64,000 nt of DNA from Escherichia coli (GTDB taxonomy: Bacteria > Pseudomonadota > Gammaproteobacteria > Enterobacterales > Enterobacteriaceae). Shown here piece after piece: positions 965-38,380 of this stretch. The DNA lies in assembly GCF_041248615.1 (NCBI RefSeq), contig NZ_CP158426.1; one strand, given 5' to 3'. The notes beneath the pieces are model-generated. The model ran no database searches and was not told the origin of the DNA. It worked only from the letters and a program-made list of their open reading frames with translations. Numbering within the stretch: the first letter of the stretch is position 1; each line of letters starts with the position of its first letter. The translations under genes and the position numbers were made by a program.

Positions 965-1040
965 TGGCTCCTCTGACTGGACTCGAACCAGTGACATACG
1001 GATTAACAGTCCGCCGTTCTACCGACTGAACTACAGAGGA
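965..1040 (-). tRNA. asnV: tRNA-Asn (GUU anticodon)
   Basis: Reverse complement reads TCCTCTGTAGTTCAGTCGGTAGAACGGCGGACTGTTAATCCGTATGTCACTGGTTCGAGTCCAGTCAGAGGAGCCA, the canonical 76-nt enterobacterial tRNA-Asn; position between erfK and nac. Confidence 0.95.
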
Positions 1041-3373: not shown

Positions 3374-3449
3374 TGGCTCCTCTGACTGGACTCGAACCAG
3401 TGACATACGGATTAACAGTCCGCCGTTCTACCGACTGAACTACAGAGGA
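3374..3449 (-). tRNA. asnU: tRNA-Asn (GUU anticodon)
   Basis: Identical 76-nt tRNA-Asn sequence on minus strand; located between cbl and yeeO. Confidence 0.95.
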
Positions 3450-5097: not shown

Positions 5098-5197
5098 ACG
5101 ACAAAGTGCAGATTATTTCAGCAAACGATTTCAAATTTAAAAAACAGGCTTTGACATTGTGGATGGGCATCGCTAATATTCGCCTCGTTCTCACGAT

Positions 5198-5273
5198 TCC
5201 TCTGTAGTTCAGTCGGTAGAACGGCGGACTGTTAATCCGTATGTCACTGGTTCGAGTCCAGTCAGAGGAGCCA
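5198..5273 (+). tRNA. asnW: tRNA-Asn (GUU anticodon); integration site of island 1
   Basis: Canonical 76-nt tRNA-Asn sequence on + strand, immediately followed by a P4-type integrase gene. Confidence 0.95.
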
Positions 5274-5434
5274 AATTCAAGTTTTCATGCTTATCTGTAC
5301 GTCTCTATTTGTTTACGATTCAGTAAGTTAGCGTGAAAATCCTTCCCGGTGCGTATCTGGTTTTCTCTCTGTATCGGGATAATTTGGTGGTCAGATCTGG
5401 GGTCAGTTTGGTTCGATTCTGGAGTGACCCCCAA

Positions 5435-6696
5435 ATGTCTTTAAACGATTCTAAAATCCGCAAGTTAAAACCCTCTTCCCGTCTGGTAAAACTCTCCGAC
5501 TCTCACGGTCTGTATCTGCTCGTCAATCCGGGCGGTTCACGCATCTGGTATCTCAAATATCGTTTCAACGGAAAAGAATCCAGAGTCAGTCTTGGCGCAT
5601 ACCCGCTTGTCTCACTGGCAGAAGCCAGGCAACAGCGCGACGGTATCCGTAAGTTACTGGCGCAGAATATCAACCCGGCGCAGCAGCGCATGGCGGAGAA
5701 AGCGGCCTGCTCCCCTGAAAAGTGCTTTAAGGCAGTGGCGCTGGCCTGGCACAAAACCAACAAAAAATGGTCGGCTGATTATGCCGCCCGTATTCTCGCC
5801 AGTATGGAAAACCATATCTTCCCGGCGATTGGTCATCTGCCAGTTGCCACTCTTAAAACGCAGGATTTACTGCTTTGTTGCGGGTTATCGAGGATAAAGG
5901 CTTTCTGGAAGTCGCGTCCCGAACCCGGCAGCAACTCAGCAACATCATGTGCTATGCCGTTCAGCAGGGGCTTACCGAAAGCAATCCGGCGCAGCATCTG
6001 GATGGCGTTGTCGCCTCACCCGTAAAGAATCACTACCCCGCGTTACTGCTGGAGCGGTTGCCCGAACTGCTTGGCCGCATCGGTGACTATCAGCAGGGCC
6101 GGGAGTTAACACGGCTGGCGGTGGTGCTGACGTTGCACCTGTTTATCCGTTCCAGCGAACTGCGTTTCGCCCGCTGGAGCGAGATCGATTTCAGGCACAA
6201 AATCTGGACCATCCCCGCCACCCGCGAGGCAATCGACAAAGTACGGTTTTCGGGGCGTGGCGCAAAAATACGTACCCCGCATATCGTGCCGCTCTCCCGC
6301 CAGGCGATTGCCATTCTGAAACAGATACAGGAGCTTTCCGGCCATCTGGATCTGGTGTTTCCCGGTGATCATAACCCGTACAAGCCAATGAGTGAAAACA
6401 CCACCAACCGGGCGCTACGCCTGATGGGGTATGATACGAAAACTGAAATCTGCGGGCATGGACTCAGGGCGATGGCCTGTAGCGCCCTGGTGGAGTCGGA
6501 GCTGTGGTCACGCGATACGGTGGAGCGGCAAATGAGCCACCAGGAGCGTAACAGCGTGCGGGCAGCCTATGTGCATAAAGCGGAGCATCTGGAGGCCAGA
6601 AAGGCCATGATGCAGTGGTGGTCGGATTATCTGGATGTGTGCCGCGAGGGGTATGTTGCGCCGTACATTTATGCCCGGCAGCATAAGGCAGCCTGA
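5435..6696 (+). pseudogene. P4-family tyrosine integrase, frameshifted near 5872
   Basis: N-terminal part (MSLNDSKIRKLKP...ATLKTQDLL) is in frame 2 (ORF 5333..6025); C-terminal part (LRVIEDKG...HGLRAM...Y) is in frame 1 (ORF 5875..6696); restoring one C at about 5872 (ctgcCtttg) would give a contiguous DLLPLLRVIEDKG integrase of about 420 aa. Confidence 0.8.
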
Positions 6697-6835
6697 ATCA
6701 GAAATAACGGAAATCATTAAAAATGTAAAAGCAGATCCTGATTGACCGGGATCTGCTTATTGTATTGAGAAGTATTACCATTTTTCTGTTATTATCAATC
6801 GGAAAGTATCTAAAAATATTTGGCCCCAAATAATT

Positions 6836-7260
6836 TTGGTGAAAACCAATCAATAAACCATTTATCAATAGGTAAGTACCGGAAATTATTCCAGTAGAAT
6901 ATTTTCAGGCGATTGCCTATTAATAAATACATTATTGATAGATAAGTGCCTTCTGTGATTTGTCCGCAAATCACAGAAGATGAAAACCTATCAATACGGG
7001 ATATTTTCACGGAAATACCAATTAATACTCCAGAATATCTCCTGACCATATACTCTGAAACCTGTAAGAACTGCATCAGATATTGAGAGACCATATAGAT
7101 ATAAGTCTGAAATTATTTTGTTTCCAATGATTTCAGGCGAAAACCTATCAATGCATCTGTTTTCAATAGGCAGCCACCTTCCGTGATTAACATGTTAATC
7201 ACGGAAGGTGAAAAGCTATCAATAATCGATATTTTCACGGAATTACCACTTAATACATCC
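6836..7260. repeat. AT-rich iteron-like array: 4 copies of GAAAA(C/G)C(T/A)ATCAAT plus two long palindromes
   Basis: Motif at 6841, 6981, 7140, 7209; palindrome tctgtgatttgtccgcaaatcacaga (6952..6977) and perfect palindrome ccttccgtgattaacatgttaatcacggaagg (7177..7208); repeated gatattttcacggaa(a/t)tacca blocks. Confidence 0.55.
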
Positions 7261-8033
7261 CAAAAAATGCGCCATAAAATACCGGGCAATCTTTCCTGAT
7301 ACACATTATCACTGCACCAGCTATACAGAGACAAAATAATCTGCACCAGCCCCTGTAAATCGGTTATTTGTGCCAGTGTCCCGCCGCTCTACCTGTTCAG
7401 GGTTGTGCCAGTTTCTGGCCCTTTGGTTTTCGGCCCTTTCCGGTCAGGCGCTGTTACCCTTATTGCCCCTTAACCTTTATGACCCTTTCCCTTTCTGACG
7501 CAACCAGTTTATTTTGAAATGCTCCATGACAGTCTGCACCAGACTGTATTTTCACCACAGGATAACGATCACAAAGTGCAAAAAAATAACATGAAGCACC
7601 GAAGATTGTTAATCTATATGTAGCAGGTAATGATGTCAAAAACTGTCGCAGCATTTTTTATAAAATTATGAGACATTCTGTGGGCATATAATATATGTCA
7701 CAAGATGCAGGAAAACAAAGAGAGAGTTTTCAGATATAATCCCGCGTTAGAATTAATGTGATGCCCCGGTGAATTTACATTTTAAAATTTCCCTGTCCCG
7801 TAATATCGGTAAAAACGATTGAAACACCAACTATTAATCGGGAACGTCTCGAGTGATTACAGGGTAATCACTATAATATCCCGGCAAACTATATTGGTTA
7901 AGCAGGAGAATCTGATCAGTTGATATTTATTCGTCATGCTGTAACGATATTTTCACAATATAAACCCGTTCGCCCCCTGCGCCAGATCCGGTACAGAGGG
8001 TACGATAAATCGCTGTCGTTACGCAGTAACGTA

Positions 8034-8650
8034 CTATTTTGCGACATTCATGAATTCAGTCATTCCTCCCTCCAGCGGTAGCCGTACACCTGTTTCACCC
8101 AGCGACCGCGACCGTCGCCATGACCCAGATCCGTCGCCGTCAGCGCCAGTGACTCCTTTTCGCTGAATCCCTGCGCCAGTATCCAGGACTGTCGTATAAC
8201 GGGGACGCCCGCCTTTGGTGCCAAATACCACTTTTAGCCGGGTTTCACCGCGGGAAATGGCTTTCAGCCACGTTTTCAGCGACTGTGAACTCTGTACCGC
8301 CTCCTGCGAACGCAGCCCCATCAGCCGCGCAATCTCCAGGCTGCTGCCAGCCCTGCGTCCTGAGTACGGGCTTTCTCCATCACCTGCCTGCGTCCAGCCT
8401 GTCTCAGCACGGCCCGCAACGCTGCCATTTCGTTTTGCAACGTTCGTAAACCAATATCCAGCTCCAGCCGTTCCTCAATGTAGCATTCGATATGGCGAAC
8501 CTTGATCTGCTCCACCCGCTGGATCTGGATATTCAGCGCCCGTAAATGTTCACTGAACCGTTTTGTAATATGGATACGGTCATTCACCGTTTTGAAGCTG
8601 CCGCCCGCTTTCTTCGCCAGCGCCTTCATTTCACTGCTTAATTTACTCAT
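8034..8650 (-). pseudogene. Degenerate tyrosine-recombinase (integrase) remnant
   Basis: ORF 8321..8650 resembles an integrase N-terminal SAM-like domain; the adjacent out-of-frame ORF 8034..8321 has a GTKGGRPRYTTVLD segment resembling the TGKGGK.R..P recombinase box; no intact catalytic C-terminus. Confidence 0.4.
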
Positions 8651-9566
8651 GAATCCCTCTGCAACAAAAACAAACAGTCTCCGGCGTGTGCTTTTTGGCT
8701 GCGCCAGAACGATACCTTTACGCCGGAGTGGTAGTTTGTTGAGGTTTAGGGAGTTTCAGGCTGTACGCAGTACAGACTGCCTGCGAAGCAGGAGTGTCTC
8801 CGGGGCTTCTTGCCCCCCTCGGTATCGATCTTTTTCTCCTTTACTCTTAGCTGACAGCGGCCCCAAAGGGCATGTCAGACGGCGGAAATATGGCGCAGGC
8901 CAGAACTGGCGCGGCTTGTGGCGGTGAGTTGTGCGGCGTCACTTTGCTTTTTCGCTGGCGCGACCAAAGTGACGCCTCGTCTGGTGCAGGGGGTAAACGT
9001 TACGTTTCTGGTGCAGGGTGACGGTCACGCGGCAGCAAAGCCTGACGGCAATGCAGGCCGCAGCCCGTCAATGTAAGGCGCTGGTTGTCAGCAGAAGATA
9101 AAACCCGGCAAAGCCAGAGTGTCAGCCCGTAAAGCCGGGTATCTGGTGCAGTGATGGTGTATATGTACGTCAGTCTCAGATGCAGGTATTTTTGCATCCC
9201 CGGCGTTTTCAGAGATCAACGCCGGTAAAGGATGCCATGCTGGCGAAGCCAGGCGCTTCTTTCAGACGTGAAGCGACAAAGGGACTGCCCGGAGGCAGTT
9301 TGTTGCAGGCGGGAGACTGCGCCATTATTTCTGGTGCAGGAAGGAAAAACTGTTTCCGGGTTTAAAAGATTGTTTGCTTACCTGGTGACGGAAAAACTGC
9401 CGCGCTTCGCTTGTCTTCTCCCGGCGCGCTGCCAGCAAAAGCAGGCAGCGCGCCGGGAGAGTCTGGTTTTACTGTAACAATGCGCCTGACGGTTCAGCCA
9501 TCAGGATCGGCGTTTATGCATGAGTCTTCCGGTACGGTTGCCCCGATCATCGATGTATCTGGACGG

Positions 9567-9755
9567 TCAGATAATTTCCGGTGATGTTTCCAGCGCATCC
9601 GCAATCAGTTTTTCGCCGCGCGGCCTGGAGCGGGTCAGCGCATTTGCCAGCGTGGAAGACGCCAGCCCGGCCCTGCGGGAAACCTCAGCCAGCGATGTTC
9701 CCTTTTTTCTCAGGCCCGCGATAATATCGGCGGGGTGCCAGTCGGGTTGCATCAT
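9567..9755 (-). CDS. Ner/Nlp-like small HTH DNA-binding protein
   Basis: 62-aa ORF with WHPADIIAGLRKKGTSLAEVSRRAGLASSTLANAL, closely resembling the Ner/Nlp family. Confidence 0.6.
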   Translation of the reverse strand: MMQPDWHPADIIAGLRKKGTSLAEVSRRAGLASSTLANALTRSRPRGEKLIADALETSPEII

Positions 9756-10213
9756 GCTGGCCTCCCGTCGATAACCTGTATGCCGTCAGCAGTACATATC
9801 CAGCGTGGGGCGTTCAGATTGGCGGCAAAATACCAGACCAGTTCGCACAGCAGCCCGGTCAGCGTGGTTTCGGTTTCCGGCAGCAGCACGTGGCCGTTCA
9901 GTATCTGCGTCAGCGCCAGGCAGTAATCGCAGAGTGATCCTGCATCAGGCTCAAAACCGGGTGAAACATCGGGAAGATCATTCGTAATAAACCCGTCAAT
10001 CAGATGTGGTGGGATCGGCTCGTTCAGCGTGGGCCGCAACAGTGCAAGACAGGTATTAAGCCTGCCACAGAGCGCCGTTTTCAGCGCCGGATCGCAGCAC
10101 TCGATGAGCGTTGTGGCAACGCGATCGCAGTACTCCGCCAGATCGGTGAAATCGGTAGCGGCACTAAAGGGAACAGCAAGTAAATTGCATTCAGAGGTGA
10201 GAGTAGTCGCCAT
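9752..10213 (-). CDS. Hypothetical protein (153 aa), 4-bp overlap with downstream Ner-like gene
   Basis: ORF only; overlapping stop/start with the Ner-like gene suggests an operon; no recognised domain. Confidence 0.35.
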   Translation of the reverse strand: MATTLTSECNLLAVPFSAATDFTDLAEYCDRVATTLIECCDPALKTALCGRLNTCLALLRPTLNEPIPPHLIDGFITNDLPDVSPGFEPDAGSLCDYCLALTQILNGHVLLPETETTLTGLLCELVWYFAANLNAPRWICTADGIQVIDGRPA

Positions 10214-10734
10214 AAGGCCGTCTACAGTGAGTGATAAATATTCCAGCCACTGGAGAGGCTAATCTCACGGGTGGTGGAACCGGACGGGGTTAGCCTTACC
10301 AGCCTCACTGACACTGGCGCGTCTTTCGACGCCCCCGCCCGATCCCGCCATTGAGATGAGACCGTGCGCGACACACAAATATTGTATCGTCAGTGAGGAT
10401 CTTCAGGAGGCTAATCCCGACGCCTGATTTTGCAGGCGCGGCGCAACAATACAATGTTCGGTAATTTTCAGCAAGAGGTTTAGCGGAAGCAGACGCACAG
10501 GAAAATACAATCACGCGATAAATATTAAATACAATTATATTTATATAAAATATATATTGAGCAATATGCAGACACTTTCCAGTAAATATCCTGTCAGTTA
10601 ATTCGTCCCGTTGATATCAGTCAAAAAAATAAATGTAAAAAGAGCGTATTTCGTTTCATACAGTAACGTTATTTATCATTTTGTCCGGTGTCGCCAGCAT
10701 CAGGCCAGATGAACCATAAAAAAGGATATCAGCG

Positions 10735-13700
10735 ATGAGCGGAAAACCGGCAGCACGTCAGGGCGATGCCACAATGAAAGGTGGCCCGATAGTCCAGGGG
10801 TCGGCAGGCGTGAGGATTGGCGCGCCAACCGGCGTGGCCTGTTCAGTGTGCCCCGGCGGATTCACTTCCGGTAACCCGGTGAATCCGCTGCTCGGTGCAA
10901 AAGTACAGCCCGGCGAAACCGATTTCGCGCTGCCCGGCCCGTTACCGTTCGTGCTCTCCCGCACCTACAGCAGCTACCGGACGAAAACCCCTGCGCCCGT
11001 CGGTATCTTCGGTCCTGGCTGGAAAGCACCCTTTGATATCCGCTTACAGATACGCGATAACGAACTGATACTCAATGATAACGGTGGCAGAAGCATTCAT
11101 TTTGAGCACCTGTTTCCCGGTGAGGATGGCTTCAGCCGCAGCGAATTATTCTGGCTGGTGCGCGGCGGCGTGGCGAAACTGAATGAAAGTCACCGTCTTG
11201 CCCCACTCTGGCAGGCTCTGCCGGAAGAACTCCGCATGAGTCCGCATATTTATCTGGCGACGAACAGTCCGCAGGGGCCGTGGTGGATACTCGGCTGGAG
11301 TGAGCGGGTACCGGGTGTGGATGAGGTGCTGCCTGCGCCATTGCCGCCGTACCGGGTGCTGACCGGCCTGGTGGACCGCTTCGGGCGTACCCTGACCTTC
11401 CGGCGTGAGGCAGTTGGCGAATTTACCGGGGAAATCACCGGCGTGACCGATGGCGCAGGCCGTCAGTTCCGCCTGGTGCTGACCACGCAGGCGCAGCGGG
11501 CGGAAGAGGCCCAGCAGCAGGCGGTTGCAGCCGGAGCAAAACGACCAGATATCCCGGTTTCATTGCCGGACTATACAGAATATGGCCGGGATAACGGCAT
11601 CCGCCTGTCAGCGGTGTGGCTGACGCATGACCCGGAATACCCGGAGAATTTACCTGCCGCGCCACTGGTGCGCTACGACTGGACGCCACGCGGTGAACTG
11701 GCGGCGGTGTATGACCGCAGCGGTACGCAGATGCGCCACTTTACTTACGATGATAAATACCGGGGCCGGATGGTGGCGCACCGTTACGCAGGCAGGCCGG
11801 AGATGCGTTACCGCTACGACGACATCGGGCGCGTGACGGAACAACGTAATCCGGCGGGTTTAAGCTACACCTATCAGTATGAGAAAAACCGCATCATCAT
11901 CACCGACAGCCTGAACCGGTGCGAGGTGCTGCATACAGAAGGCGAAGCCGGGCTGAAACGGGTGGTGAAAAAAGAGCACGCTGACGACAGCGTCACACAG
12001 AGTCAGTTCGATTCCATTGGCCGCCTTCAGTCACAGACGGATGCGGCAGGCCGGACGACAGAATACAGTCCGAATGTGGTGACGGGTCTCGTCACACGCA
12101 TCACCACGCCGGACGGCAGGAAATCGGAATTTTACTATAACAACCAGAACCAGTTAACCTCAGCATCCGGGCCTGACGGACTGGAAATGCGCAGGAAATA
12201 TGATGAGTACGGGCGTCTGACGCAGGAAACCGCTCGCAACGGCGATATCACCCGCTACAGTTATGATAATCCGCACAGTGAATTACCCTCTGCAACTGAA
12301 GATGCGACGGGTAGCCGCAAGCAGATGACGTGGAGCCGTTACGGGCAGTTACTGACTTTCACCGACTGCTCAGGCTACCAGACCCGTTATGAATACGACC
12401 GCTTTGGTCAGATGACGGCGGTCCACCGTGAGGAAGGTGTCAGTCTTTACCGCAGCTATGACAGCCGTGGTCAGTTAATCTCGGTGAAAGATACGCAGGG
12501 CCGTGAAACGCAGTATGAGTACAACGGTGCAGGCGACCTGACCGCCATTATCACGCCAGACGACAACAGAAGCGAGACACAGTACGATGCGTGGGGAAAG
12601 GCCGTCAGTACCACGCAGGGCGGGCTGACGCGCAGCATGGAATACGACGTTGCCGGACGTGTCATCAGCCTGACCAACGAGAACGGCTGTCACAGCGACT
12701 TCAGTTACGATGTGCTCGACCGCCTGATACAGCAGAGCGGCTTTGACGGGCGGACGCAACGTTACCGTTACGACCTGACCGGGAAACTCACGCAGAACGA
12801 GGATGAGGGGCTTGTCACCCTCTGGCACTACGACGAATCGGACCGTATCACACACCGCACGGTGAACGGCGAACCGGCAGAGCAGTGGCGGTATAACGCC
12901 CACGGCTGGCTGAAAGAAATCAGCCACCTGAGCGAAGGTCACCGGGTGGCGGTGCATTACGGCTATAACCGTAAGGGACGTCTCACCGGCGAGCGCCAGA
13001 CGGTGCATAACCCGGAGACGGGGGAACTGCTCTGGCTGCATGAGACAAAACACGCCTACAACGAACAGGGTCTGGCAAACCGCGTCACGCCGGACTGCCT
13101 GCCTGCTGTGGAGTGGCTGACCTACGGCAGCGGTTACCTGGCGGGGATGAAGCTGGGCGACACGCCGCTGCTGGAGTACGCGCGCGACCGCCTGCACAGA
13201 GAAACGGTGCGCAGCTTTGGCAGCATGGCAGGCAGTAATGCCGCATACGAACTGACCAGCACATACACCCCCGCAGGCCAGTTACAGAGCCAGCACCTGA
13301 ACAGCCTGGTGTATGACCGTGACTATGGGTGGAATGACAACGGCGACCTGGTGCGCATCAGCGGCCCGCGACAGACGCGGGAATACGGCTACAGCGCCAC
13401 GGGCAGGCTGGCGAGTGTGCGCACCCTCGCACCGGACCTGGACATCCGCATCCCGTATGCCACGGACCCGGCGGGCAACCGGCTGCCGGACCCGGAGCTG
13501 CACCCGGACAGTACACTCACAGTGTGGCCGGATAACCGCATCGCGGAGGATGCGCACTATGTCTACCGCCACGATGAATACGGCAGGCTGACGGAGAAGA
13601 CGGACCGCATCCCGGCGGGTGTGATACGGACGGACGACGAGCGGACCCACCACTACCACTACGACAGCCAGCACCGCCTGGTGTTCTACACGCGGATACA

Positions 13701-14916
13701 GCATGGAGAGCCACTGGTCGAGAGCCGCTACCTCTACGACCCGCTGGGACGGCGAATGGCGAAAAGGGTATGGCGGCGGGAGCGTGACCTGACGGGGTGG
13801 ATGTCGCTGTCGCGTAAACCGGAGGAGACATGGTACGGGTGGGACGGCGACAGGCTGACGACGGTGCAGACTGACACCACGCGTATCCAGACGGTGTACC
13901 AGCCGGGAAGCTTCACGCCGCTCATCAGAATCGAAACAGACGTGACCGAACTGGAGAAAGCGCAGCGGCGAAGCCTGGCGGAGAAGTTACAGCAGGAAGG
14001 GAGTAAAGATGGTCACGGCGTGGTGTTCCCGCCTGAACTGGTGCGGCTGCTGGACAGGCTGGAGGGGGAAATCCGGGCAGACCGTGTGAGTGACGAAAGC
14101 CGGGCGTGGCTTGCGCAGTGCGGGCTGACGGTGGAGCGGCTGGCGGCACAGATCGAGCCAGTTTATTTGCCTGAGCGAAAAATACATCTTTATCACTGCG
14201 ACCACCGGGGACTGCCGCTGGCGCTTATCAGTACTGAAGGTGCAACGGAATGGCGTGGGGAGTATGACGAGTGGGGGAATCAGCTTAATGAGGAGAACCC
14301 GCATCATCTGTTCCAGCCATACCGCCTGCCGGGGCAGCAGTACGATGATGAATCGGGGCTGTGCTATAATCGTTATCGTTACTACGAGCCGTTACAAGGG
14401 AGGTATATTACACAGGACCCGATTGGGTTAAATGGGGGGTGGAATTTATATAAATATCCGCTGAATCCAATAAATTATGCAGATCCTCTTGGCTTAGCCG
14501 TAGATATAAACCACTTCCCAGTCAACGAAGACATACGAAATTATGCAGAGAAAGTTTGGAATAATCCTAATATCATTACAATTGGAACACATGGTGATCC
14601 TCAATCAGTATATGATGAAAATTATAATAAGATAGATGTCAAGACATTAGCTAATGAGGTTCGAAATCATCCTAAATTTAAACCTGGAATGTCAGTAAGA
14701 CTGTTATCCTGTAATACAGGAAAAGGAAATAACTCTTTTGCACAGCAATTGGCAGATGAACTAGGTGTGAGAGTCTATGCTCCTGACCAATATGACTGGT
14801 ACTATTCAAATGGTAAGGTAGAGCCTTGGGGAGGATTCTATGATGCAAACAATCAATTGCAAATGGACACGAATCAGCCTGGACATGAGTTTACATTCAA
14901 GCGAAGGAAACCATAG
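10735..14916 (+). CDS. rhs: Rhs family polymorphic toxin (RHS/YD-repeat core plus variable C-terminal toxin tip)
   Basis: 1393-aa ORF starting [11 protein letters not shown] as in E. coli Rhs proteins; many YD repeats; core ends at ...[13 protein letters not shown]...YADPLGL (about 14497), followed by an AT-rich 139-aa tip. Confidence 0.9.
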
Positions 14917-14972
14917 GTATGAGGTATTTTCTCTTTATATTTATAACAATCCCCCTTATCTCTGGAGGTCAT

Positions 14973-15521
14973 ATGAGTAATGATAGCGAAAAGATAATAT
15001 CAACATATTCGCTCAATTTTTTATCACCAGATGATGTGAGGAAAGAAGAACTTAAGGCATCACAAGGTGATAGTGATGCTGCATTTAAATTGTACAAATA
15101 TTACCTTTTTTGCGAGCCAAAATCATACAGAAAACAGCACGAATGGTTAATAATATCGGCAAATAATGGAAATGCTATAGCTCAATATAACTTATCAAGA
15201 GAACTTGAGTCAGAAGGAAAAGTAGATGAATCAATACAATGGCTGAAAAAATCAGCGGAACATGGTAATAATTATGCACAATATCAGATGTCAAAATATT
15301 TATTAAAAATAGGTGATATTAGAGGATCGGAATATTATCTAAACTTATCTGCGGATAACGGATGTGTATTTGCAATAAAAGATATTATCAAAAATATGAT
15401 GGATAGTGGAAGGTACGATGACGCCCTCATTTGGGTTGAAAAATTGAAAAAATTGTATCCTGACACAAATACCGAACTTTACATACAAAAAATAACGCAG
15501 AAAAAAAAGCAATCCAAATAA
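14973..15521 (+). CDS. Putative Rhs immunity protein with Sel1-like repeats
   Basis: Immediately downstream of the rhs tip, AT-rich like the tip; GGAGG Shine-Dalgarno before ATG 14973; repeats GNAIAQYNL / GNNYAQYQM resemble Sel1/TPR-like motifs. Confidence 0.55.
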   Translation: MSNDSEKIISTYSLNFLSPDDVRKEELKASQGDSDAAFKLYKYYLFCEPKSYRKQHEWLIISANNGNAIAQYNLSRELESEGKVDESIQWLKKSAEHGNNYAQYQMSKYLLKIGDIRGSEYYLNLSADNGCVFAIKDIIKNMMDSGRYDDALIWVEKLKKLYPDTNTELYIQKITQKKKQSK

Positions 15522-15809
15522 TAATTATATATAATTACTCGCACAGAGTTACAGTATTGCAAGAAATATATCTAGCATATAAAGTCGCCGCCAGTAAAGA
15601 TAAAGTACTGTGTAATCCTTCCTCCCATATAGGGGTAAAAACTTAGCATCCAGTGCCCTCGACTTAATTTTTAGTATTTTCTCTGTGAAGTGACACTTCG
15701 TAGGATTCAGTTCATGTTTACCAGAAAAAAGGTGGTCATTCTGGTGGTCTTGACAATCTCGATTTTTTGTTTTAGCTTTCCAATCAGCCAATTAATGGCT
15801 ACGGCGATC

Positions 15810-15825
15810 CCAGTCAGAGGAGCCA
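15810..15825 (+). repeat. 16-bp direct repeat of tRNA-Asn 3' end (distal att boundary of asnW island)
   Basis: ccagtcagaggagcca is identical to the last 16 nt of asnW (5258..5273); preceded by tacggcgatc, which is also found at the asnT-side boundary (revcomp of 30131..30140). Confidence 0.75.
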
Positions 15826-16276
15826 AATTTTAGTTTTGAGACATCTCTATGAGTCTCAAGACAGTTAAAAAATAAAAATTATTTTTACCCGGTTACCTTG
15901 TAAAAAAGTGACCGGGTTTTTTGATTTCTGTGTTTCGTGCGCTTAATCGAGTCTCACGCTTCAGTGAGCAAATTGCCCCCCAACAGACATCACGATTCGC
16001 AAGGTCAAAAACTTCGTTCCGTGAAGTACCGTACAAAGGTATAGAGAAAAATACCTTATGCTGGATGTCGCTGTCGCGTTTTTATCGGGAAACTATGCGT
16101 AATTGCCACTTTGCCTTCTGTAATCAGAAAAAGAAGAACTGGAATTTTAATAAATATTATTTCTCTGGGAATGGGGATTTTTTATAATCAATATGACGAG
16201 TTGAACATTATATTTTTATAATGATTATATGAGATTAAAGAAATCTGCCATAAAGACAGATTTCTTTAAAATATAA

Positions 16277-21836: not shown

Positions 21837-29802
<7,966 letters not shown>

Positions 29803-30114: not shown

Positions 30115-30130
30115 TGGCTCCTCTGACTGG
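30115..30130 (-). repeat. tRNA-Asn 3'-end remnant (16 bp): att boundary of island 2 at the asnT site
   Basis: tggctcctctgactgg is the reverse complement of the tRNA-Asn 3' end; identity stops after 16 nt; adjacent island sequence is homologous to the island-1 end. Confidence 0.75.
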
Positions 30131-30479: not shown

Positions 30480-31712
<1,233 letters not shown>

Positions 31713-32389: not shown

Positions 32390-33442
32390 ATGGGAATTAG
32401 TGTTCGAGTCTTGCAAGCAAATCATGGTGATTGTTTCTTAGTTAGTTATAAGAGCTCAGATAGTGTTTACAACTTGCTAATTGATGGTGGTAATAGCGCC
32501 ACATTTATGTTTGGGGCTCAAGGGCGCTACAGTGGTGAGCTTAAATGTGTACTCGATGATTTGAAAAAAGAAGGTCAGAAAATTGACTTGGTTATCTTAA
32601 CCCATATAGATGATGATCATATCGGTGGTTTGCTTAGGGCTTTTGAAACACCAGGTTATCTATGCCAAATGGCTTCTTCTATCTGGTTTAATTCTTCAAG
32701 ATTTATCACCAAACATTTTAAGGTTGATGAAATTTCAGACAATGATGTCTGTCTTCAAAGTAACTCAACGCAGACAAGTGCTAGGCAAGGGAAGAAACTG
32801 GAAAACTTACTTGATGAAATCAATTGCGAACGGCAACCCATAGTTATTGCGGGGCAGAAGTTTACAAGGGGTCCGTTCACATTCACGATCTTATCCCCTG
32901 AAGAAGATAATCTACGTAGCCTTCTTCATAAGTGGCCAGATGAGCCAGATCCGGTTACGACATCCGGTGCTTCAAGGGATTATGGAATGAAATTTGAGGA
33001 TATTTTGTCTAATGATAAATTCCAGAGTGATCAATCTGTTTATAATGGTAGCTCAATTGCTTTCATCCTTGAAGCTGATGGTAAGGCTATGCTCTTTTTG
33101 GGCGATTCACATGATGAAAATATTGTCCGTAATTTACGATCTCTTGGTTTTAATGAAGGTAACAAGCTCAAACTCGACCTCGTGAAAATTTCTCATCATG
33201 GTAGCCAGTATAATACTAGCCCTGAATTTTTGTCGCTCATAGATGCGCAAAACTTCATTATATCCACTAATGGGAGTAAGCACGGACTTCCTGATAAGAG
33301 AACTATTGCACGGATTTTATCTTCAGGAGAAGGCAAAATCGGCTTCAATTATTCGCACATTATCCAGGAGATGCTTCACGAAAATGAGGTTCCATTGTAC
33401 TCTTCTCGCCTGGTAGCATTAAATGGAGAAATTAGGCTATAA
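32390..33442 (+). CDS. MBL-fold metallo-hydrolase (first gene of candidate defence operon)
   Basis: Motifs HGDCFLV...IDGG, LVILTHIDDDHIGG and KISHHGS are typical of the metallo-beta-lactamase fold; AGGAAA RBS before ATG 32390; stop overlaps next gene. Confidence 0.7.
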   Translation: MGISVRVLQANHGDCFLVSYKSSDSVYNLLIDGGNSATFMFGAQGRYSGELKCVLDDLKKEGQKIDLVILTHIDDDHIGGLLRAFETPGYLCQMASSIWFNSSRFITKHFKVDEISDNDVCLQSNSTQTSARQGKKLENLLDEINCERQPIVIAGQKFTRGPFTFTILSPEEDNLRSLLHKWPDEPDPVTTSGASRDYGMKFEDILSNDKFQSDQSVYNGSSIAFILEADGKAMLFLGDSHDENIVRNLRSLGFNEGNKLKLDLVKISHHGSQYNTSPEFLSLIDAQNFIISTNGSKHGLPDKRTIARILSSGEGKIGFNYSHIIQEMLHENEVPLYSSRLVALNGEIRL

Positions 33443-34727
33443 AATGACCGCTTCAAATTTGATGGCTTCTAACGCAGTGATCGTGAACGAGGGCAGTGGT
33501 GTTCTTGTTAATGCGATGACTCAAGATTATTCATACGTACTCACAGCAAAACATGTGTTAGCGAAATCAGGTAGTCAAAATATCGTTACTAATCAATATG
33601 GTAACAGTCTTAGAGTGCTTGATGTATTGGTGGGTCAGGAAGAGCATTGCGACTGTGCTGTAATCAAAATTGAATATGTACCAACTGTTGCTCAGCAGTC
33701 CTTCCCTGCAATAGCATTACCCAATTCGGCTTTGCTAAAGTTTGTTGGTTTTCCGGGAACCGAGAGACTAAGCGCTACCCCGCTGAAAATCTATGATGGG
33801 CATGTAACAGATGTAAGGGAGGGGCTGATTAGCTTCACGATAGAAGGCAGTCCCTCAAAAACCGCAATCGATGGAATGTCTGGCGGTGGAATGTATTACA
33901 TAGTTAATGAACATCCCCTCCTTGTTGGTGTAGAATTTGGGATGGACAGTATTCGTCAAGATCTACAATATGGACGTATACAATGTAAAAGTTTAATTGT
34001 TTTTGAAGAGATAATTAATTTAAACAGTGCTGCTCCAATGGTTCCCGCTTATTTGGAGTGTTTTTCACGCTTAAAAGAATATATCTTCGATTTTAATGTT
34101 GTTGATAAAAATAGAGTTCTGAATCTGAAAAACGCATTAAATATTTTTGCAGATGAACTTATAGACAAAGGTATGCCACCACCATTTGAATTAATGTCCA
34201 AATACAAAACTGATTTGTTAGTAGGTCCATATCAAGTTGACGATGTTAAAAATAAAGAATTATGGGTTGCATATTTTGAATTTCTGATAATTTGCGCAAT
34301 TCTTGATAATGTAAGTATTGCCAATAGTTCTTATATAGAAAGTTTAGAGCGGCGTAGGAGAATTCTTTATACTCCGGATGGAAGTAATTGGGTCGGAAAG
34401 CTTGATGTAATCTTAAAAGTTGCTCGAAAGTTATTAGATAAAGATGGCATAGTAATTGTGGCATCTCCAGAAAATGGAGCCGAATTATTACCGGATGATT
34501 TTGAAGTCGATAGGGTTATAAGGAATATTGCGCGAATCGCTAATTCAGGTCCACTTGCTCCTATCGATCAAGTTGAAAAAGAGATGTATAAGAGTTTTGT
34601 ATTAACGCATCTTGAAGGGCTGAGAAAAAAATGTGTTATAAACAAAGAGAGAATGTATGCAGAAGTTGAAGCTGGCTTAGACCAACTTCAGACGTTTAAG
34701 GAAAGCTTTAATGAATTTATTAAATAA
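33423..34727 (+). CDS. Trypsin-like (S1-type) serine protease with C-terminal domain of unknown function (LmuA-like effector?)
   Basis: Candidate catalytic triad in order His (VLTAKHV), Asp (DCAVIKIE), Ser (DGMSGGGMYY); about 230 further residues without recognised motif; start may be 33423 or 33444; overlaps both neighbours. Confidence 0.7.
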   Translation: MEKLGYKMTASNLMASNAVIVNEGSGVLVNAMTQDYSYVLTAKHVLAKSGSQNIVTNQYGNSLRVLDVLVGQEEHCDCAVIKIEYVPTVAQQSFPAIALPNSALLKFVGFPGTERLSATPLKIYDGHVTDVREGLISFTIEGSPSKTAIDGMSGGGMYYIVNEHPLLVGVEFGMDSIRQDLQYGRIQCKSLIVFEEIINLNSAAPMVPAYLECFSRLKEYIFDFNVVDKNRVLNLKNALNIFADELIDKGMPPPFELMSKYKTDLLVGPYQVDDVKNKELWVAYFEFLIICAILDNVSIANSSYIESLERRRRILYTPDGSNWVGKLDVILKVARKLLDKDGIVIVASPENGAELLPDDFEVDRVIRNIARIANSGPLAPIDQVEKEMYKSFVLTHLEGLRKKCVINKERMYAEVEAGLDQLQTFKESFNEFIK

Positions 34728-35262
34728 AGAATTTGATTTGGAATTTCTTAAATCTAGATTTTCTGATGCAGATTTCTATTTTTTTGTTTCTAATGATGAC
34801 TCATCTTATATTTCATGCGTAGCATGCTATTGTGAGAGCGCTAATTACGTGGTTGCGAATTGGACAGCGATTCAGAATTATTTATCTGCTTACTACCAAC
34901 CGAAGGATGAATTAGCTCTTTGGAATATATATTTAGTTTTCTTTTGTTCCGAAAAATTACCGATTTGGGATAAGTACCTTATAGATAATGATAAGTATTC
35001 TGTCAGAAAATTAATTATTGACGGGTTAACTACTCTGCCAAGTATTTCCGAAACTGTAACTTTTCTGAACAATCATCTGCTAGGCGCAGACCTAGAATTA
35101 ACTGAAATAGAGGAGAAGAAGGAGATAGAGTTATCATTAATTGAGTATATAAGTGGAACTCCTTTAGATTCAAAGGTTGAGTCGAGAGATGAGCGTATGA
35201 GCAGAATTGATAAAATTATTAATCTAGTGAGTTCAAATAAAAATGAAAATAAAAAAAGTTGA
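34711..35262 (+). CDS. Small protein (183 aa) of unknown function, translationally coupled (middle component?)
   Basis: ORF overlaps upstream gene by 17 nt and downstream gene by 20 nt; AT-rich; no recognised motif. Confidence 0.5.
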   Translation: MNLLNKEFDLEFLKSRFSDADFYFFVSNDDSSYISCVACYCESANYVVANWTAIQNYLSAYYQPKDELALWNIYLVFFCSEKLPIWDKYLIDNDKYSVRKLIIDGLTTLPSISETVTFLNNHLLGADLELTEIEEKKEIELSLIEYISGTPLDSKVESRDERMSRIDKIINLVSSNKNENKKS

Positions 35263-38200
35263 AATAGAAGGCTTTCGAGCATACAGATTCAAGGAAGATG
35301 GTACTTTCGATTTTACAAATAAAGATGATACGCCATCCAATTTTGTAGCGATCTATGCACCCAATGGCTTTGGAAAAAGTTCATTCTATGATGCGGTTGA
35401 ATGGGCTATTACTCATAATTTAGATAGATTTGCGGGTGAATATAATAAAAAAAATTATGAGCAAGCTGCCAGGAGCACGAAAGAGGACGGTGTTGCACAA
35501 AAAATACTACGTAATAAAGATGTACCAGACAATATTCCTACTCGTGTAACAGTTTTCACTACTTTACCAACTCCATTCGAACAAAGTTTAGGAACAGTTC
35601 GTTCTGATTCTAGAGATATAAGAATCGGCGAGAATAAAAATAAAATCAATGGCTATTTTAGAAAAGTGGTTCTTAGTCAAGATGAAATAGACCGTTTTTT
35701 AAAAGAAGCAAAGCCGCAAGATCGTTATAAGATGTTTATGGAGAGTTTTGGAGGTGAATGGGAAAAGGCGAGACAAGAGCTAACTATACTATTGAATGAC
35801 AATAAGGCGGTTTTGTTAAATCTCGAAAAAAACAAAAATGAACTTCAGGAACAACTAGATCAGCCTGTTGATGCGTCAACATTCATACAATTTAATAAAA
35901 TAGCATCTGAACTTGTAGCAGAAGGTGAAAGTTTACCATTAGTAGATGAAACAACTATAGTTAATACACAGCATGAGCTTTTGGAAAAAATAATCACAAG
36001 AAGTCACGAAATAAATTTTTCCTTAAACAAGAAAAAAATATTGAGAGATTCGATTTCTGAGTATATTTTAAAATTTCCTGATATCAGTTTTCGTACAACC
36101 CAGATTATCGAGAAAAAGAATAGACTAGAAAAAATAAATAAAGGGATAGAAGATGTCGGTCGTTATAAGACATTTCAGTCTACTCTTGAAAAACTGACTA
36201 TCGAAAAGAAAAAGATAAGTCAGAGCTTAAATTTTATAGAAGAATTAGATGGTTTATCCCAAGAGTTTTTAAGCTTGGAATTTAACTTGGAATCAGCTCG
36301 AAAGAAACATAGAGAGATTTCATATAATTATGAAAATGAAAAAACTCTCCTTGATAATTTATTCCAAACAAGAAACCAAAATGATGCTGATTTATCTTCA
36401 ATTGACAAGCGATGCTTATCTATACGTTCTACGTTAGAAAACGCTACGGTTACTTATTCTAATATATCTAATATACAAAATAAAATTTTAAATATAGTTT
36501 CTACGCAAACAGAATTAGAGCACAAACTTAATCAAGTTAGATCCGAATACCAAAAAAACAAATCCGAATTAAACAAAGTATCAGATTTAACAATAACCGC
36601 CAAATCATTACTTTCATCAGACTTAAGTCTAATTGATTTATCTTCAGATTTATTAAAAGAACTAAACAACTTATCGCAAGAACTAAATATATTGGTCCTA
36701 CATGATCAATCAATTCATAACACACAAGAATCTCTTTCTGCACAAATGGGAGTTCACGAACGTCTAATTGCATCGGGCCTTGAGTACTTAAGTTTATGGC
36801 CGACTAATATATGTCCTTTATGTCACAAGCCGCATGACTCTGAGTCCTCTCTTAGAGAACAAGTAACAAATACTGACGTAATATCCATGCTTAGTAAAGA
36901 GAATGCAGCTAAGCTCGAGATATCCTCAAAACGGCGGTCAGAGTTAAATGGCAAGATAGAATCCATCGTACAGAAAGCCCTTGAAATTAAAATGAGTAAA
37001 CTTGAGGTATTAAGTAAAAAGGTCAATCAACAAGGAAATGAGATACATCGAGAAGAACAGCACTATACAGCTCTTTTAGCAGAAAAACAGTCTGTCCAAA
37101 ATCAGTTAAACGAGTTGCAGAAGGCTGTAGCTGGACTAACTAAAGATGAATTATTAGCTCGCTTAGATGCTGAACTTAAAGAATTAGAGGCCAAGAAAAA
37201 TGAAGTGATAAAAAACAAGCTGACCTTGACGAAAAATATTAACGTTAAAAGAACGTTGATTACAGAGTTAAGTGGGGCGATCAATTTACTTAATACGCAA
37301 ATTCATGAAATGATGTCATCATCTAACTATTTAAAAACAAAAGCTTACTCTGAAGAAAATGGCTTGTCATCGGAGTTTTTGAAAGAACATTATGATGATA
37401 AACGCCATTTTTACCTTAAAAATATAAATGGACTCAATTTTGAGATTAATAATATTACCAGCCAATTAAATGATCTTCAGAAAGCTATGATAGCCGATGA
37501 AATGTGGCTGGATTATGAAGAAATGATTTCTGAAAAAGAGAATTTCGAGGATTATATTTCTAAATCAGAAGCGGTTTTACAATCTTATTCATCATTATTA
37601 AAGCAGCATTTTGAACTACCAAAATATGAATCTTTAGTTGAATTGAAAGATTTCCTGATAAGCTCACTTGATAAAGAAACTAGGCTTTATAATGGTCTAG
37701 AGGAACGGCTTGGAAAATATAATTTATTATCAGAACTTTTGAAAACAGCAGAGTCGTTTGTAAAAAGTATTAAGTTGCAGAATGATATTAATGAAACCTT
37801 AGGTCTTATAGAAATAAGAAAAGAAGTTGATTTAGCTCTGACTAAGGAACGAAATCAAGTAATAGAGGAACTTAGAAACTTGATAAAATCTTTCTTTTAT
37901 GAGGAACTCATTAATTCTATTTATAAGAGAATAGATCCACATCCATCACTTAAGAAAGTGGTGTTTCGCCCAGATTTTGACTCATCAGATAAACCTGGTC
38001 TTAATATAGTTGTCAGTGATGAAAAAGGTGATATGGTATCTCCAATATTATTCTTTAGTGCAGCGCAATTAAATATTCTAAGCCTTAGTGTCTTTTTAGC
38101 AAGTGCTTTGCATGCAAAAGATGATAATGGAAATGTAATTGATGTGATTATGATTGATGATCCAATTCAATCAATGGATTCAATTAATATCCTATCCACA

Positions 38201-38380
38201 ATTGATCTTCTTAGAAGTATTACCGTTAGATTCAACAAACAAATAATAATATCAACACATGACGACAATTTCTTTGGCTTGCTCCAACGTAAAATCCCTT
38301 CGGAAATATTGGGTGCCAAGTTTCTTAAATTGGAGAAATTTGGGGTTGTAGTGCCTGTTGATGATTTAAATAATACATGA
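35243..38380 (+). CDS. Rad50/SbcC/SMC-like ABC ATPase with central CxxC zinc hook (LmuB-like?)
   Basis: N-terminal Walker A (VAIYAPNGFGKSSFYD), Q-loop (VLSQDEI), long coiled-coil middle with CPLC at residues 524-527 of 1045 (nt 36812..36823), C-terminal signature-like FSAAQ, Walker B VIMIDDP, D-loop SMD and H-loop ISTHD. Confidence 0.8.
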   Translation: MKIKKVEIEGFRAYRFKEDGTFDFTNKDDTPSNFVAIYAPNGFGKSSFYDAVEWAITHNLDRFAGEYNKKNYEQAARSTKEDGVAQKILRNKDVPDNIPTRVTVFTTLPTPFEQSLGTVRSDSRDIRIGENKNKINGYFRKVVLSQDEIDRFLKEAKPQDRYKMFMESFGGEWEKARQELTILLNDNKAVLLNLEKNKNELQEQLDQPVDASTFIQFNKIASELVAEGESLPLVDETTIVNTQHELLEKIITRSHEINFSLNKKKILRDSISEYILKFPDISFRTTQIIEKKNRLEKINKGIEDVGRYKTFQSTLEKLTIEKKKISQSLNFIEELDGLSQEFLSLEFNLESARKKHREISYNYENEKTLLDNLFQTRNQNDADLSSIDKRCLSIRSTLENATVTYSNISNIQNKILNIVSTQTELEHKLNQVRSEYQKNKSELNKVSDLTITAKSLLSSDLSLIDLSSDLLKELNNLSQELNILVLHDQSIHNTQESLSAQMGVHERLIASGLEYLSLWPTNICPLCHKPHDSESSLREQVTNTDVISMLSKENAAKLEISSKRRSELNGKIESIVQKALEIKMSKLEVLSKKVNQQGNEIHREEQHYTALLAEKQSVQNQLNELQKAVAGLTKDELLARLDAELKELEAKKNEVIKNKLTLTKNINVKRTLITELSGAINLLNTQIHEMMSSSNYLKTKAYSEENGLSSEFLKEHYDDKRHFYLKNINGLNFEINNITSQLNDLQKAMIADEMWLDYEEMISEKENFEDYISKSEAVLQSYSSLLKQHFELPKYESLVELKDFLISSLDKETRLYNGLEERLGKYNLLSELLKTAESFVKSIKLQNDINETLGLIEIRKEVDLALTKERNQVIEELRNLIKSFFYEELINSIYKRIDPHPSLKKVVFRPDFDSSDKPGLNIVVSDEKGDMVSPILFFSAAQLNILSLSVFLASALHAKDDNGNVIDVIMIDDPIQSMDSINILSTIDLLRSITVRFNKQIIISTHDDNFFGLLQRKIPSEILGAKFLKLEKFGVVVPVDDLNNT

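Follow-up and report, generated by a model that had tools for sequence, protein, structure and literature searches.

A decayed island at asnW of Escherichia coli carries an Rhs toxin gene and has relatives at three tRNA-Asn genes

What occupies the 10.5 kb between the tRNA-Asn gene asnW and yeeN in this Escherichia coli chromosome, and did the rhs gene that it holds arrive together with the rest? The window analysed here is a stretch of 64,000 nucleotides of contig NZ_CP158426.1, and an original prediction made from its letters alone had taken the block for a degenerate island with a complete Rhs toxin/immunity module. We find that it is very probably a site-specific asn-tRNA island with a P4-type integrase, which carries an auxiliary type VI secretion system (T6SS) effector as its cargo and has decayed in this lineage. 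Genome-wide context was read from the chromosome of E. coli NRZ14408 (NZ_LT599825.1), which is 100% identical to the window.

The genes around the block run in the order nac, cbl, asnU, yeeO, asnW, island, yeeN, amn and shiA. ARAGORN identifies three tRNA-Asn genes in the window, namely asnV (965-1040, minus strand), asnU (3374-3449, minus strand) and asnW, and the last of these marks the left boundary of the island:

5198-5273, plus strand: asnW, tRNA-Asn(GTT), the integration target (ARAGORN, Rfam tRNA and the Prokaryotic Genome Annotation Pipeline, PGAP)
5258-5277, plus strand: left direct repeat (attL core), 20 bp, the first 16 bp being the tRNA 3' end
15810-15829, plus strand: right direct repeat (attR core), 20 bp

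The direct repeat, CCAGTCAGAGGAGCCAAATT, had been recognised correctly, but its length had been given as 16 bp; it is exact over 20 bp, 16 of which derive from the tRNA. This 16-mer is expected by chance 0.01 times in the window and occurs five times: in the three asn tRNA genes, in attR of the island and once more at 30115-30130. On alignment with K-12 MG1655, in which asnW and yeeN are adjacent, the window up to 5277 and from 15830 onwards is contiguous, and the insertion measures exactly 10,552 bp. The yeeO-asnW-yeeN junction is uninterrupted in 4,980 of 5,426 complete E. coli genomes, and at least 80% of the island is present in 121 of them. This comparison with island-free genomes bears out the claim that the block is an insertion, and excludes its presence at this locus in all E. 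coli. A duplicated tRNA 3' end together with a precise empty site in relatives identifies a tRNA-associated integrative island, of 51.6% GC and mosaic composition, which would have integrated into asnW when attP recombined with the tRNA 3' end, an event that produced the 20-bp repeats. Everything previously listed as its contents (integrase, repeat units, integrase remnant, Ner-like gene, rhs and downstream ORF) could be located.

The rhs gene is an intact open reading frame (ORF) of 1,393 aa (10735-14916, plus strand). It and the ORF that follows it are organized as follows:

10735-14496, plus strand: rhs core, aa 1-1254, with DUF6531, YD repeats and an RHS core ending DPLGL
14497-14916, plus strand: predicted Rhs C-terminal toxin domain (the tip), aa 1255-1393 (139 aa), AT-rich
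14973-15521, plus strand: Sel1/TPR-repeat putative immunity protein, 182 aa, its ATG preceded by GGAGGT

Residues 1-1254 match the NCBI RHS_core equivalog NF041261 at 2592 bits (cut-off 2000), and Pfam identifies RHS_repeat seven times as well as the RHS domain; the protein thus has the YD-repeat core of an Rhs polymorphic toxin, ending in the PxxxxDPxGL signature. At the N-terminus DUF6531 alone was found and no Pfam PAAR model matched, and the PAAR-like stretch there resembles that of the T6SS-linked Rhs at the aspV locus. The GC content of the tip and downstream ORF is 34.7%, against 59.8% in the core. An alternative start at 14919 would extend the Sel1/TPR protein to 200 aa. The rhs gene is intact in the window and in strains ST2747, MLI106K3 and PCN033, with 8-9 amino acid differences in ST2747 and MLI106K3. 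The Sel1/TPR ORF is 98-99% conserved even in strains with a truncated, frameshifted or deleted rhs, a pattern that would be expected if it paid to keep immunity by itself, and we infer that its product is the immunity factor for the tip. The original description of a complete module therefore stands as far as the intactness of both ORFs is concerned; it is complete only as a toxin/immunity pair, which would need a T6SS and a VgrG encoded elsewhere.

Did rhs travel with the island? The island backbone (6700-10734) is present at a coverage of at least 80% in 266 genomes, and the integrase type at an identity of at least 90% in 479; the common integrases of the type found on the pks island and the high-pathogenicity island (HPI) are ~72% identical to it at the DNA level. 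Five relatives illustrate what varies within the family:

PCN033, at asnW: island 98.5-99.4% identical, with both 20-bp repeats and an intact integrase allele
2014C-3655, at asnU: both recombinases intact; rhs frameshifted; the same tip and putative immunity gene
MB22, at asnT: colinear with window 5174-14496 and 15727-15832; a different tip and a 130-aa downstream ORF
O145 RM10425, at asnT: the same backbone and right end; cargo of tssG, tssF, vgrG, two ORFs and PAAR
EC0585, at asnW: an Ash-family gene, a DUF2169 fragment, IS3 and orphan rhs fragments; a second element in tandem

The unit composed of integrase, backbone, rhs, cassette, right end and repeat therefore occurs at three asn tRNA genes (asnW, asnU and asnT) in different strains. 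Because the same unit is found at all three, the simplest reading of these sequences is that a mobile element carries rhs as true cargo, and that the gene did not arrive later. The cargo slot repeatedly holds T6SS-related genes across the family. With its P4-type tyrosine integrase, the family very probably targets the four asn tRNA genes of E. coli, whose 3' ends are identical. We also weighed a composite origin, in which an integrase island would have landed at asnW first and rhs would have transposed or recombined into it later. Such a history would fit the description of clade I rhs genes of E. coli as spreading to new chromosomal loci by transposition and not on mobile elements (PMC2935791), as well as the mosaic composition of the island and the presence in the same genome of about 10 other rhs-homologous places that could have been donors by recombination. 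However, the order conserved at the three asn tRNA genes includes the ~0.5-kb spacer that precedes rhs, and movement as a unit is the simplest explanation of this order; other family members hold T6SS cargo in the same position; we regard a composite origin as very unlikely.

The tip of rhs can be replaced within the island. Homology between the window and MB22 stops precisely at the border between Rhs core and tip (14496/14497) and restarts at 15727. This difference is a clean C-terminal displacement inside the island, and reveals that the cassette is exchangeable between alleles, as is typical of a variable Rhs tip with a downstream gene that presumably confers immunity. In EC0585, the asnW locus (L007, 19,997-39,990) holds two tandem elements, with copies of the right end at 31161-31256 and from 39890 onward; the second of these elements includes IS100 and encodes a radical SAM protein as well as a DUF6375 protein.

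What might the tip of the window's Rhs do? Structural modelling predicts a caspase-like (clan CD) fold, the best structural matches being the cysteine protease domains (CPDs) of RtxA and TcdA, and Tce1. Homologues of the tip share the motifs GHG...SCNTG...FAQQLA...AP, in which the Cys of SCNTG (aa 1326) is invariant; all homologues that extend over the region have the His of GHG (aa 1286). The alignment thus places His before Cys, the order expected of clan CD, and the predicted model supplies the fold. We predict that the tip is a cysteine protease toxin that uses His1286 and Cys1326 and is neutralised by the Sel1 protein.

The tip initially seemed to be a very rare domain, with nine homologues in a word-indexed protein search; this idea was discarded when an exhaustive profile search gave 3,742 clusters at 50% identity. 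Members of this large family lie at the C-terminus of PAAR-Rhs proteins, form small orphans, stand beside ART or RelA_SpoT domains, or recur in 3-7 copies within giant proteins of 3,000-6,800 aa. The repeated or internal copies are probably self-releasing peptidases rather than toxins, a division that agrees with the 'Tox-Caspase' domain of Zhang et al. 2012, whose internal copies were predicted to be releasing peptidases and whose C-terminal copies were predicted to be toxins (PMC3482391). Two homologues reside in orphan cassettes and each is followed by an overlapping small ORF; homologues occur in orphan toxin/immunity arrays, beside Imm26 and similar genes. Sub-threshold matches to C80 were obtained for two of eight homologues (E 0.025), and a single match to DUF4347 (E 0.004). 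The Tox-Caspase domains, the C80 CPDs (of MARTX and of TcdA/TcdB) and Tce1/Tce2 of Pseudomonas aeruginosa share with the tip the same predicted caspase-hemoglobinase fold and a His-then-Cys pair, and likewise can be C-terminal in Rhs/PAAR toxins or internal or repeated in giant toxins. The tip differs from them in length (~135 aa, against ~200 aa for CPDs) and in its partner, a Sel1-repeat protein in place of Imm36 or Imm57.

A T6SS that could deliver such a toxin is present in the same genome. At the aspV locus of NZ_LT599825.1, hcp, vgrG, rhs, tssA, B, C, E, F, G, H, J, K, L (annotated icmH/DotU) and M, together with tagH, are all annotated intact, in the layout of the O157 Sakai cluster. 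Over the whole core, the N-terminal PAAR-like stretch included, the Rhs of the island and the T6SS-linked Rhs of aspV are 71% identical. Delivery of the island Rhs by the aspV T6SS is plausible on this sequence evidence. In the proposed mechanism the cargo would act as an auxiliary T6SS effector, whose YD-repeat shell would enclose the 139-aa C-terminal toxin. Mounted on the VgrG spike of the aspV T6SS, Rhs would be injected into neighbouring bacteria, where self-cleavage at the DPLGL motif would free the caspase-like domain; the freed cysteine protease would then cleave an essential target, and the Sel1 protein would block the protease in siblings. Two further features of the aspV region were observed. 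The T6SS, which has its own hcp-vgrG-rhs and immunity-like ORF, also includes a second hcp copy with an internal stop, and this apparently complete system lies beside a Flag-2 lateral flagellar cluster (loci L020, 4,186,797-4,225,176, and L021, 4,238,277-4,267,781, of NZ_LT599825.1).

Several results weigh against this picture of a delivered, immunity-paired protease. The model of the tip is of medium quality (mean pLDDT, the predicted local distance difference test, 72.8), and Foldseek returns the same clan weakly, with no match at E <= 0.001 and TM-scores of ~0.35. Searches with the tip gave nothing significant in Pfam, NCBIfam, phmmer or profile comparisons against the PDB, and it falls outside Pfam Peptidase_C80 and DUF4347, with no significant sequence match to either; comparison of folds alone was informative. 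The small ORFs that follow homologous toxins are unrelated to Sel1 proteins. Eukaryotic cells are where the structural relatives, CPDs and Tce1/Tce2, act, and no immunity genes accompany Tce1/Tce2 (PMC13323088). The island encodes no vgrG, PAAR or chaperone gene, so that its connection to the aspV T6SS is a putative one, and a scan for a sigma-70 promoter upstream of rhs gave no more matches than shuffled sequence.

Some of these results bear on the possibility that the tip targets eukaryotic cells, or serves for autoprocessing in the manner of the InsP6-activated CPDs of MARTX and TcdA/B or of P. aeruginosa Tce2; the Sel1 protein would then have no part in immunity. The structures that match best are the CPDs of RtxA and TcdA as well as Tce1; toxicity of Tce2 was seen in yeast and not in E. 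coli, and no immunity gene goes with it (PMC13323088); and family members that are internal, repeated 3-7 times or placed ahead of ART/RelA_SpoT domains suggest a releasing peptidase (PMC3482391). Here, however, the tip is the sole domain after DPLGL, which leaves nothing to release. The ORF tightly linked downstream is still 98-99% conserved in strains with a broken rhs, homologues stand beside Imm26-like genes, and C-terminal copies are those that Zhang et al. predicted to be toxins (PMC3482391). We therefore judge a tip without an antibacterial role to be distinctly unlikely, and favour the antibacterial toxin. A further possibility is that the Rhs C-terminus and its immunity gene serve mainly as an addiction module or as pure immunity, stabilising the island or giving protection against neighbours, and are not a weapon that is fired. 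The 4.2-kb rhs ORF is intact in the window, ST2747, MLI106K3 and PCN033, which would be unexpected if the delivery domain were dispensable, and the host has a full T6SS; we hold this explanation to be unlikely, if somewhat less so than the preceding one. Usefulness in interbacterial competition, in protection against kin that carry the same toxin, or in both presumably keeps the toxin and immunity genes intact.

Can the island still move? Neither of its two recombinase genes is intact in the window:

5435-6696, plus strand: P4-type tyrosine integrase pseudogene (Pfam/NCBIfam; 'frameshifted' according to PGAP; alignment with intact homologues)
8034-8650, minus strand: second tyrosine recombinase pseudogene, with Phage_int_SAM_2 and Integrase_1

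In the integrase, the domains Arm-DNA-bind_3, Phage_int_M and Phage_integrase (Pfam/NCBIfam) are divided between two frames. A 1-bp deletion after 5868 is the sole indel relative to intact homologues and yields ORFs 5333-6025 and 5875-6696. The frameshift of this P4-type integrase, already claimed in the original prediction, is genuine: a sequencing error was ruled out because the identical deletion allele is found in three independent assemblies, those of ST2747 (Belgium), MLI106K3 (Mali) and EC556 (Japan), and sister copies in other family members, such as that of PCN033, have an intact integrase. On this comparison the deletion is ancestral to an asnW-island lineage now found across hosts and continents. 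The second recombinase, a protein of 294 aa that is intact in relatives, has decayed here through a frameshift and a deletion, with a gap of ~87 bp relative to PCN033, and is also annotated as frameshifted in ST2747, MLI106K3 and EC556; it accounts for what had been described as integrase remnants. These losses, together with truncation of the Ner-like gene, would have left the island to vertical inheritance, probably.

With no intact integrase of its own, the island is likely immobilised. The earlier claim of immobilisation holds for the decay of both recombinases, with the caveat that an integrative and conjugative element (ICE) at asnT in the same genome encodes an intact integrase that targets the same tRNA 3' end and would be a possible source in trans. 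This ICE of ~52 kb extends from window 30115-64000 to about 81,931 (NZ_LT599825.1 2,081,786-2,133,602), with its outer 16-bp repeat at 30115-30130 (minus strand). It encodes virB-type type IV secretion system genes, mobC, a coupling protein, ArdC, AlpA and, beside asnT just outside the window, the intact P4-type integrase, and its cargo includes UbiD/UbiX, glycosyl hydrolases and IS3 copies. A predicted defence locus of the ICE (window about 32390-38380) comprises, by PGAP names, a ComEC/Rec2-family gene, an 'ABC-three component system' protein, middle component 1, and a 1,045-aa AAA ATPase. Between the island and the ICE lies a yeeJ-like gene for a giant Ig-like adhesin (21837-29802, minus strand), which is annotated as frameshifted in the window strain.

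The island would thus still be mobile if the asnT ICE integrase excised it in trans, or if RecA mediated exchange between identical asn tRNA genes. Both 20-bp repeats are intact, the integrase of the ICE, 71% identical to the island type, has the same target, and the sequences just inside attL of the two elements share the motifs TTAGCGTGAAAA and GGGA(T/A)AAnTTGGTGGTCAnATCTGG. An identity of 71%, however, is not evidence that the arm sites would be cross-recognised, and no recombination directionality factor (RDF) was identified on the island. Isolates of three continents share the frameshifted allele, a distribution that suggests stable inheritance by descent. Continued mobility therefore seems improbable to us, and a fixed, vertically inherited island remains the preferred reading.

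The remainder of the island consists of a backbone whose elements are as follows:

6898-7028 and 7126-7256: two copies of a ~130-bp unit, 73% identical
8706-8833, minus strand: EFASI RNA motif (Rfam RF02957, 100.8 bits, gathering score 51.2, E 2e-20)
9567-9755, minus strand: Ner/SfsB-like HTH_35 regulator (Pfam/NCBIfam)
9752-10213, minus strand: 153-aa ORF, conserved in family members
10267-10355, minus strand: C4-type antisense RNA (Rfam RF01695, 62.2 bits, gathering score 45)
10400-10452, minus strand: a1/b1-like C4 targets (Rfam RF03163, 43.8 bits, below the gathering score of 46.7)
15727-15809, plus strand: right-end segment, presumed integrase arm region, common to all family members whatever their cargo

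Each of the two units contains one perfect palindrome, at 6950-6979 (13-bp arms) and 7175-7210 (17-bp arms). The palindromes, with the half-site CTTCYGTGATTW, are kept in one or two copies in all family members examined. The palindrome variants differ symmetrically, in that a change in one arm is mirrored in the other, which points to a dyad-symmetric protein site or a hairpin. Of the 'iteron/palindrome array' that had been proposed here, the palindromes are therefore real; an iteron array was rejected, as Tandem Repeats Finder reports nothing within 6898-7256 and the actual structure is the two palindrome-bearing units. The sole array that this program finds in that part of the island spans 33 bp (7467-7499).

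The EFASI RNA lies directly 5' of the second recombinase gene, a position consistent with its description in Rfam as lying upstream of integrase genes in Enterobacteriaceae (quoted in PMC12370729); STAXI RNA, a frequent companion of EFASI, gave no Rfam match at E <= 1. Further along, the Ner-like regulator was found as expected, albeit C-terminally truncated by 22 aa (62 aa, against 84 aa in relatives). Its start is overlapped by the 153-aa ORF of the same operon, for which Pfam, NCBIfam and PHROG gave no match. In a complementarity search, the loop segments GTCAGTGAGG and AGGCTAA of the C4 RNA are complementary to upstream sites (10389-10398 and 10408-10414) and also to two stretches of the 153-aa ORF's leader (10225-10231 and 10256-10262). 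The C4 RNA of P1/P7 immI, which controls icd-ant, and IsrK of Salmonella likewise have loops complementary to both upstream and downstream-ORF leader sites; in contrast to immI, the genes here are the 153-aa ORF and the Ner-like helix-turn-helix gene, and not icd/ant.

Descent of the backbone from a P4-like satellite or another phage was considered and dropped for want of evidence. A comparison of 6700-10734 (blastn, distant mode) and of the 153-aa ORF (tblastn) with 50,697 phage records returned two short unannotated fragments only, and matches in PHROGs were restricted to generic integrase and repressor families. The right end, in turn, is not specific to the family. The ~87-bp segment at 15723-15809 is also present, 85-95% identical, in about 68 genomes without this Rhs tip, and in E. 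coli LF82 (L024, 6001-6087) it terminates an unrelated island at another locus, with genes for an ATP-dependent nuclease and a UvrD-helicase. This distribution suggests a shared island terminus or integrase arm region.

How does the island compare with known occupants of these tRNA genes? The pks (colibactin) island and HPI have the same target, the 3' end of asnW/U/V/T, and have repeats derived from the tRNA 3' end (PMC8209727). They also resemble the asnW island in having the integrase directly downstream of the tRNA gene, in using different asn tRNA sites and in a tendency to become fixed by decay (PMC8209727). They differ in size (54 kb for pks and ~35 kb for HPI, against 10.5 kb), in cargo (secondary-metabolite pathways, against a T6SS effector) and in backbone, to which that of the asnW island, with EFASI and the Integrase_1 recombinase, C4 RNA, 153-aa ORF and HTH_35 gene, is unrelated. 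The EARL (ROD21-like) islands share an Asn-tRNA site, a P4-type integrase beside the tRNA gene and flanking direct repeats (PMC7074111). EARL islands have a GC content of 35.7-39.2%, against 51.6% here, and encode hns homologues and, at their far end, an RDF (PMC7074111); among nine ORFs of at least 50 aa scanned on the asnW island with Pfam and NCBIfam, none matched an RDF or hns family and none was of the AlpA/Xis type.

As a toxin gene, the island rhs has the plan of RhsA-E (clade I) of E. coli and of the aspV vgrG-rhs locus of O157 Sakai: a GC-rich core shared among them, a DPxGL boundary, a variable, AT-rich tip with an immunity gene behind it, and displacement of the C-terminus (PMC2935791). 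According to Jackson et al. 2009, the rhs loci of E. coli are not on mobile elements, unlike those of Salmonella SPI-6 and ROD9 (PMC2935791). Unlike RhsA-E, the island rhs lies within an integrase-bounded tRNA island that is found at three asn tRNA sites, and this copy is without the vgrG, H-rpt or orphan tips of E. coli Rhs elements.

Our literature search found no description of an Rhs island at asnW or of its family, and returned only pks, HPI/ICE and EARL. The constituent parts (the P4-type tRNA island, the Rhs polymorphic toxin and the Tox-Caspase domain) were already known. What is new here is that a family is recognised, that it uses asnT, asnU and asnW, that a cassette is swapped at the core border, and that the tip is predicted to be a protease toxin. 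In a bolder reading, these elements might form an undescribed family of small asn-tRNA elements that spreads and exchanges Rhs toxins among E. coli. Its fixed backbone would comprise the P4-type integrase, the palindrome units, the EFASI RNA with the Integrase_1 recombinase and the C4-RNA-controlled operon, and its T6SS cargo slot would hold rhs with swappable tips, vgrG, PAAR or DUF2169. The tip would be the first antibacterial, immunity-paired protease of the CPD/Tce-like type in a tractable E. coli system. We offer this broader proposal tentatively, as one that is rather less likely than not.

The island indicates that clade I rhs genes, usually seen as fixed loci, can move as cargo of a site-specific island able to use any of the four asn tRNA genes, and the precise exchange of a cassette at the core border within it is a concrete route for the horizontal acquisition of Rhs toxins. 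For experiments, the family provides a natural set of variants, in which the integrase is intact or broken, rhs is intact or broken, and two different tips are represented. The large family of the tip is not covered by Pfam, and its closest structural relatives are directed at eukaryotes; an immunity-paired member in E. coli would allow the bacterial target of this predicted caspase-like toxin class to be identified. For annotation, the asn tRNA hotspot gains a third kind of occupant besides pks and HPI/ICE. If the proposal is true, the asn-tRNA family would be a route of tip acquisition of the kind left open by Jackson et al. 2009.

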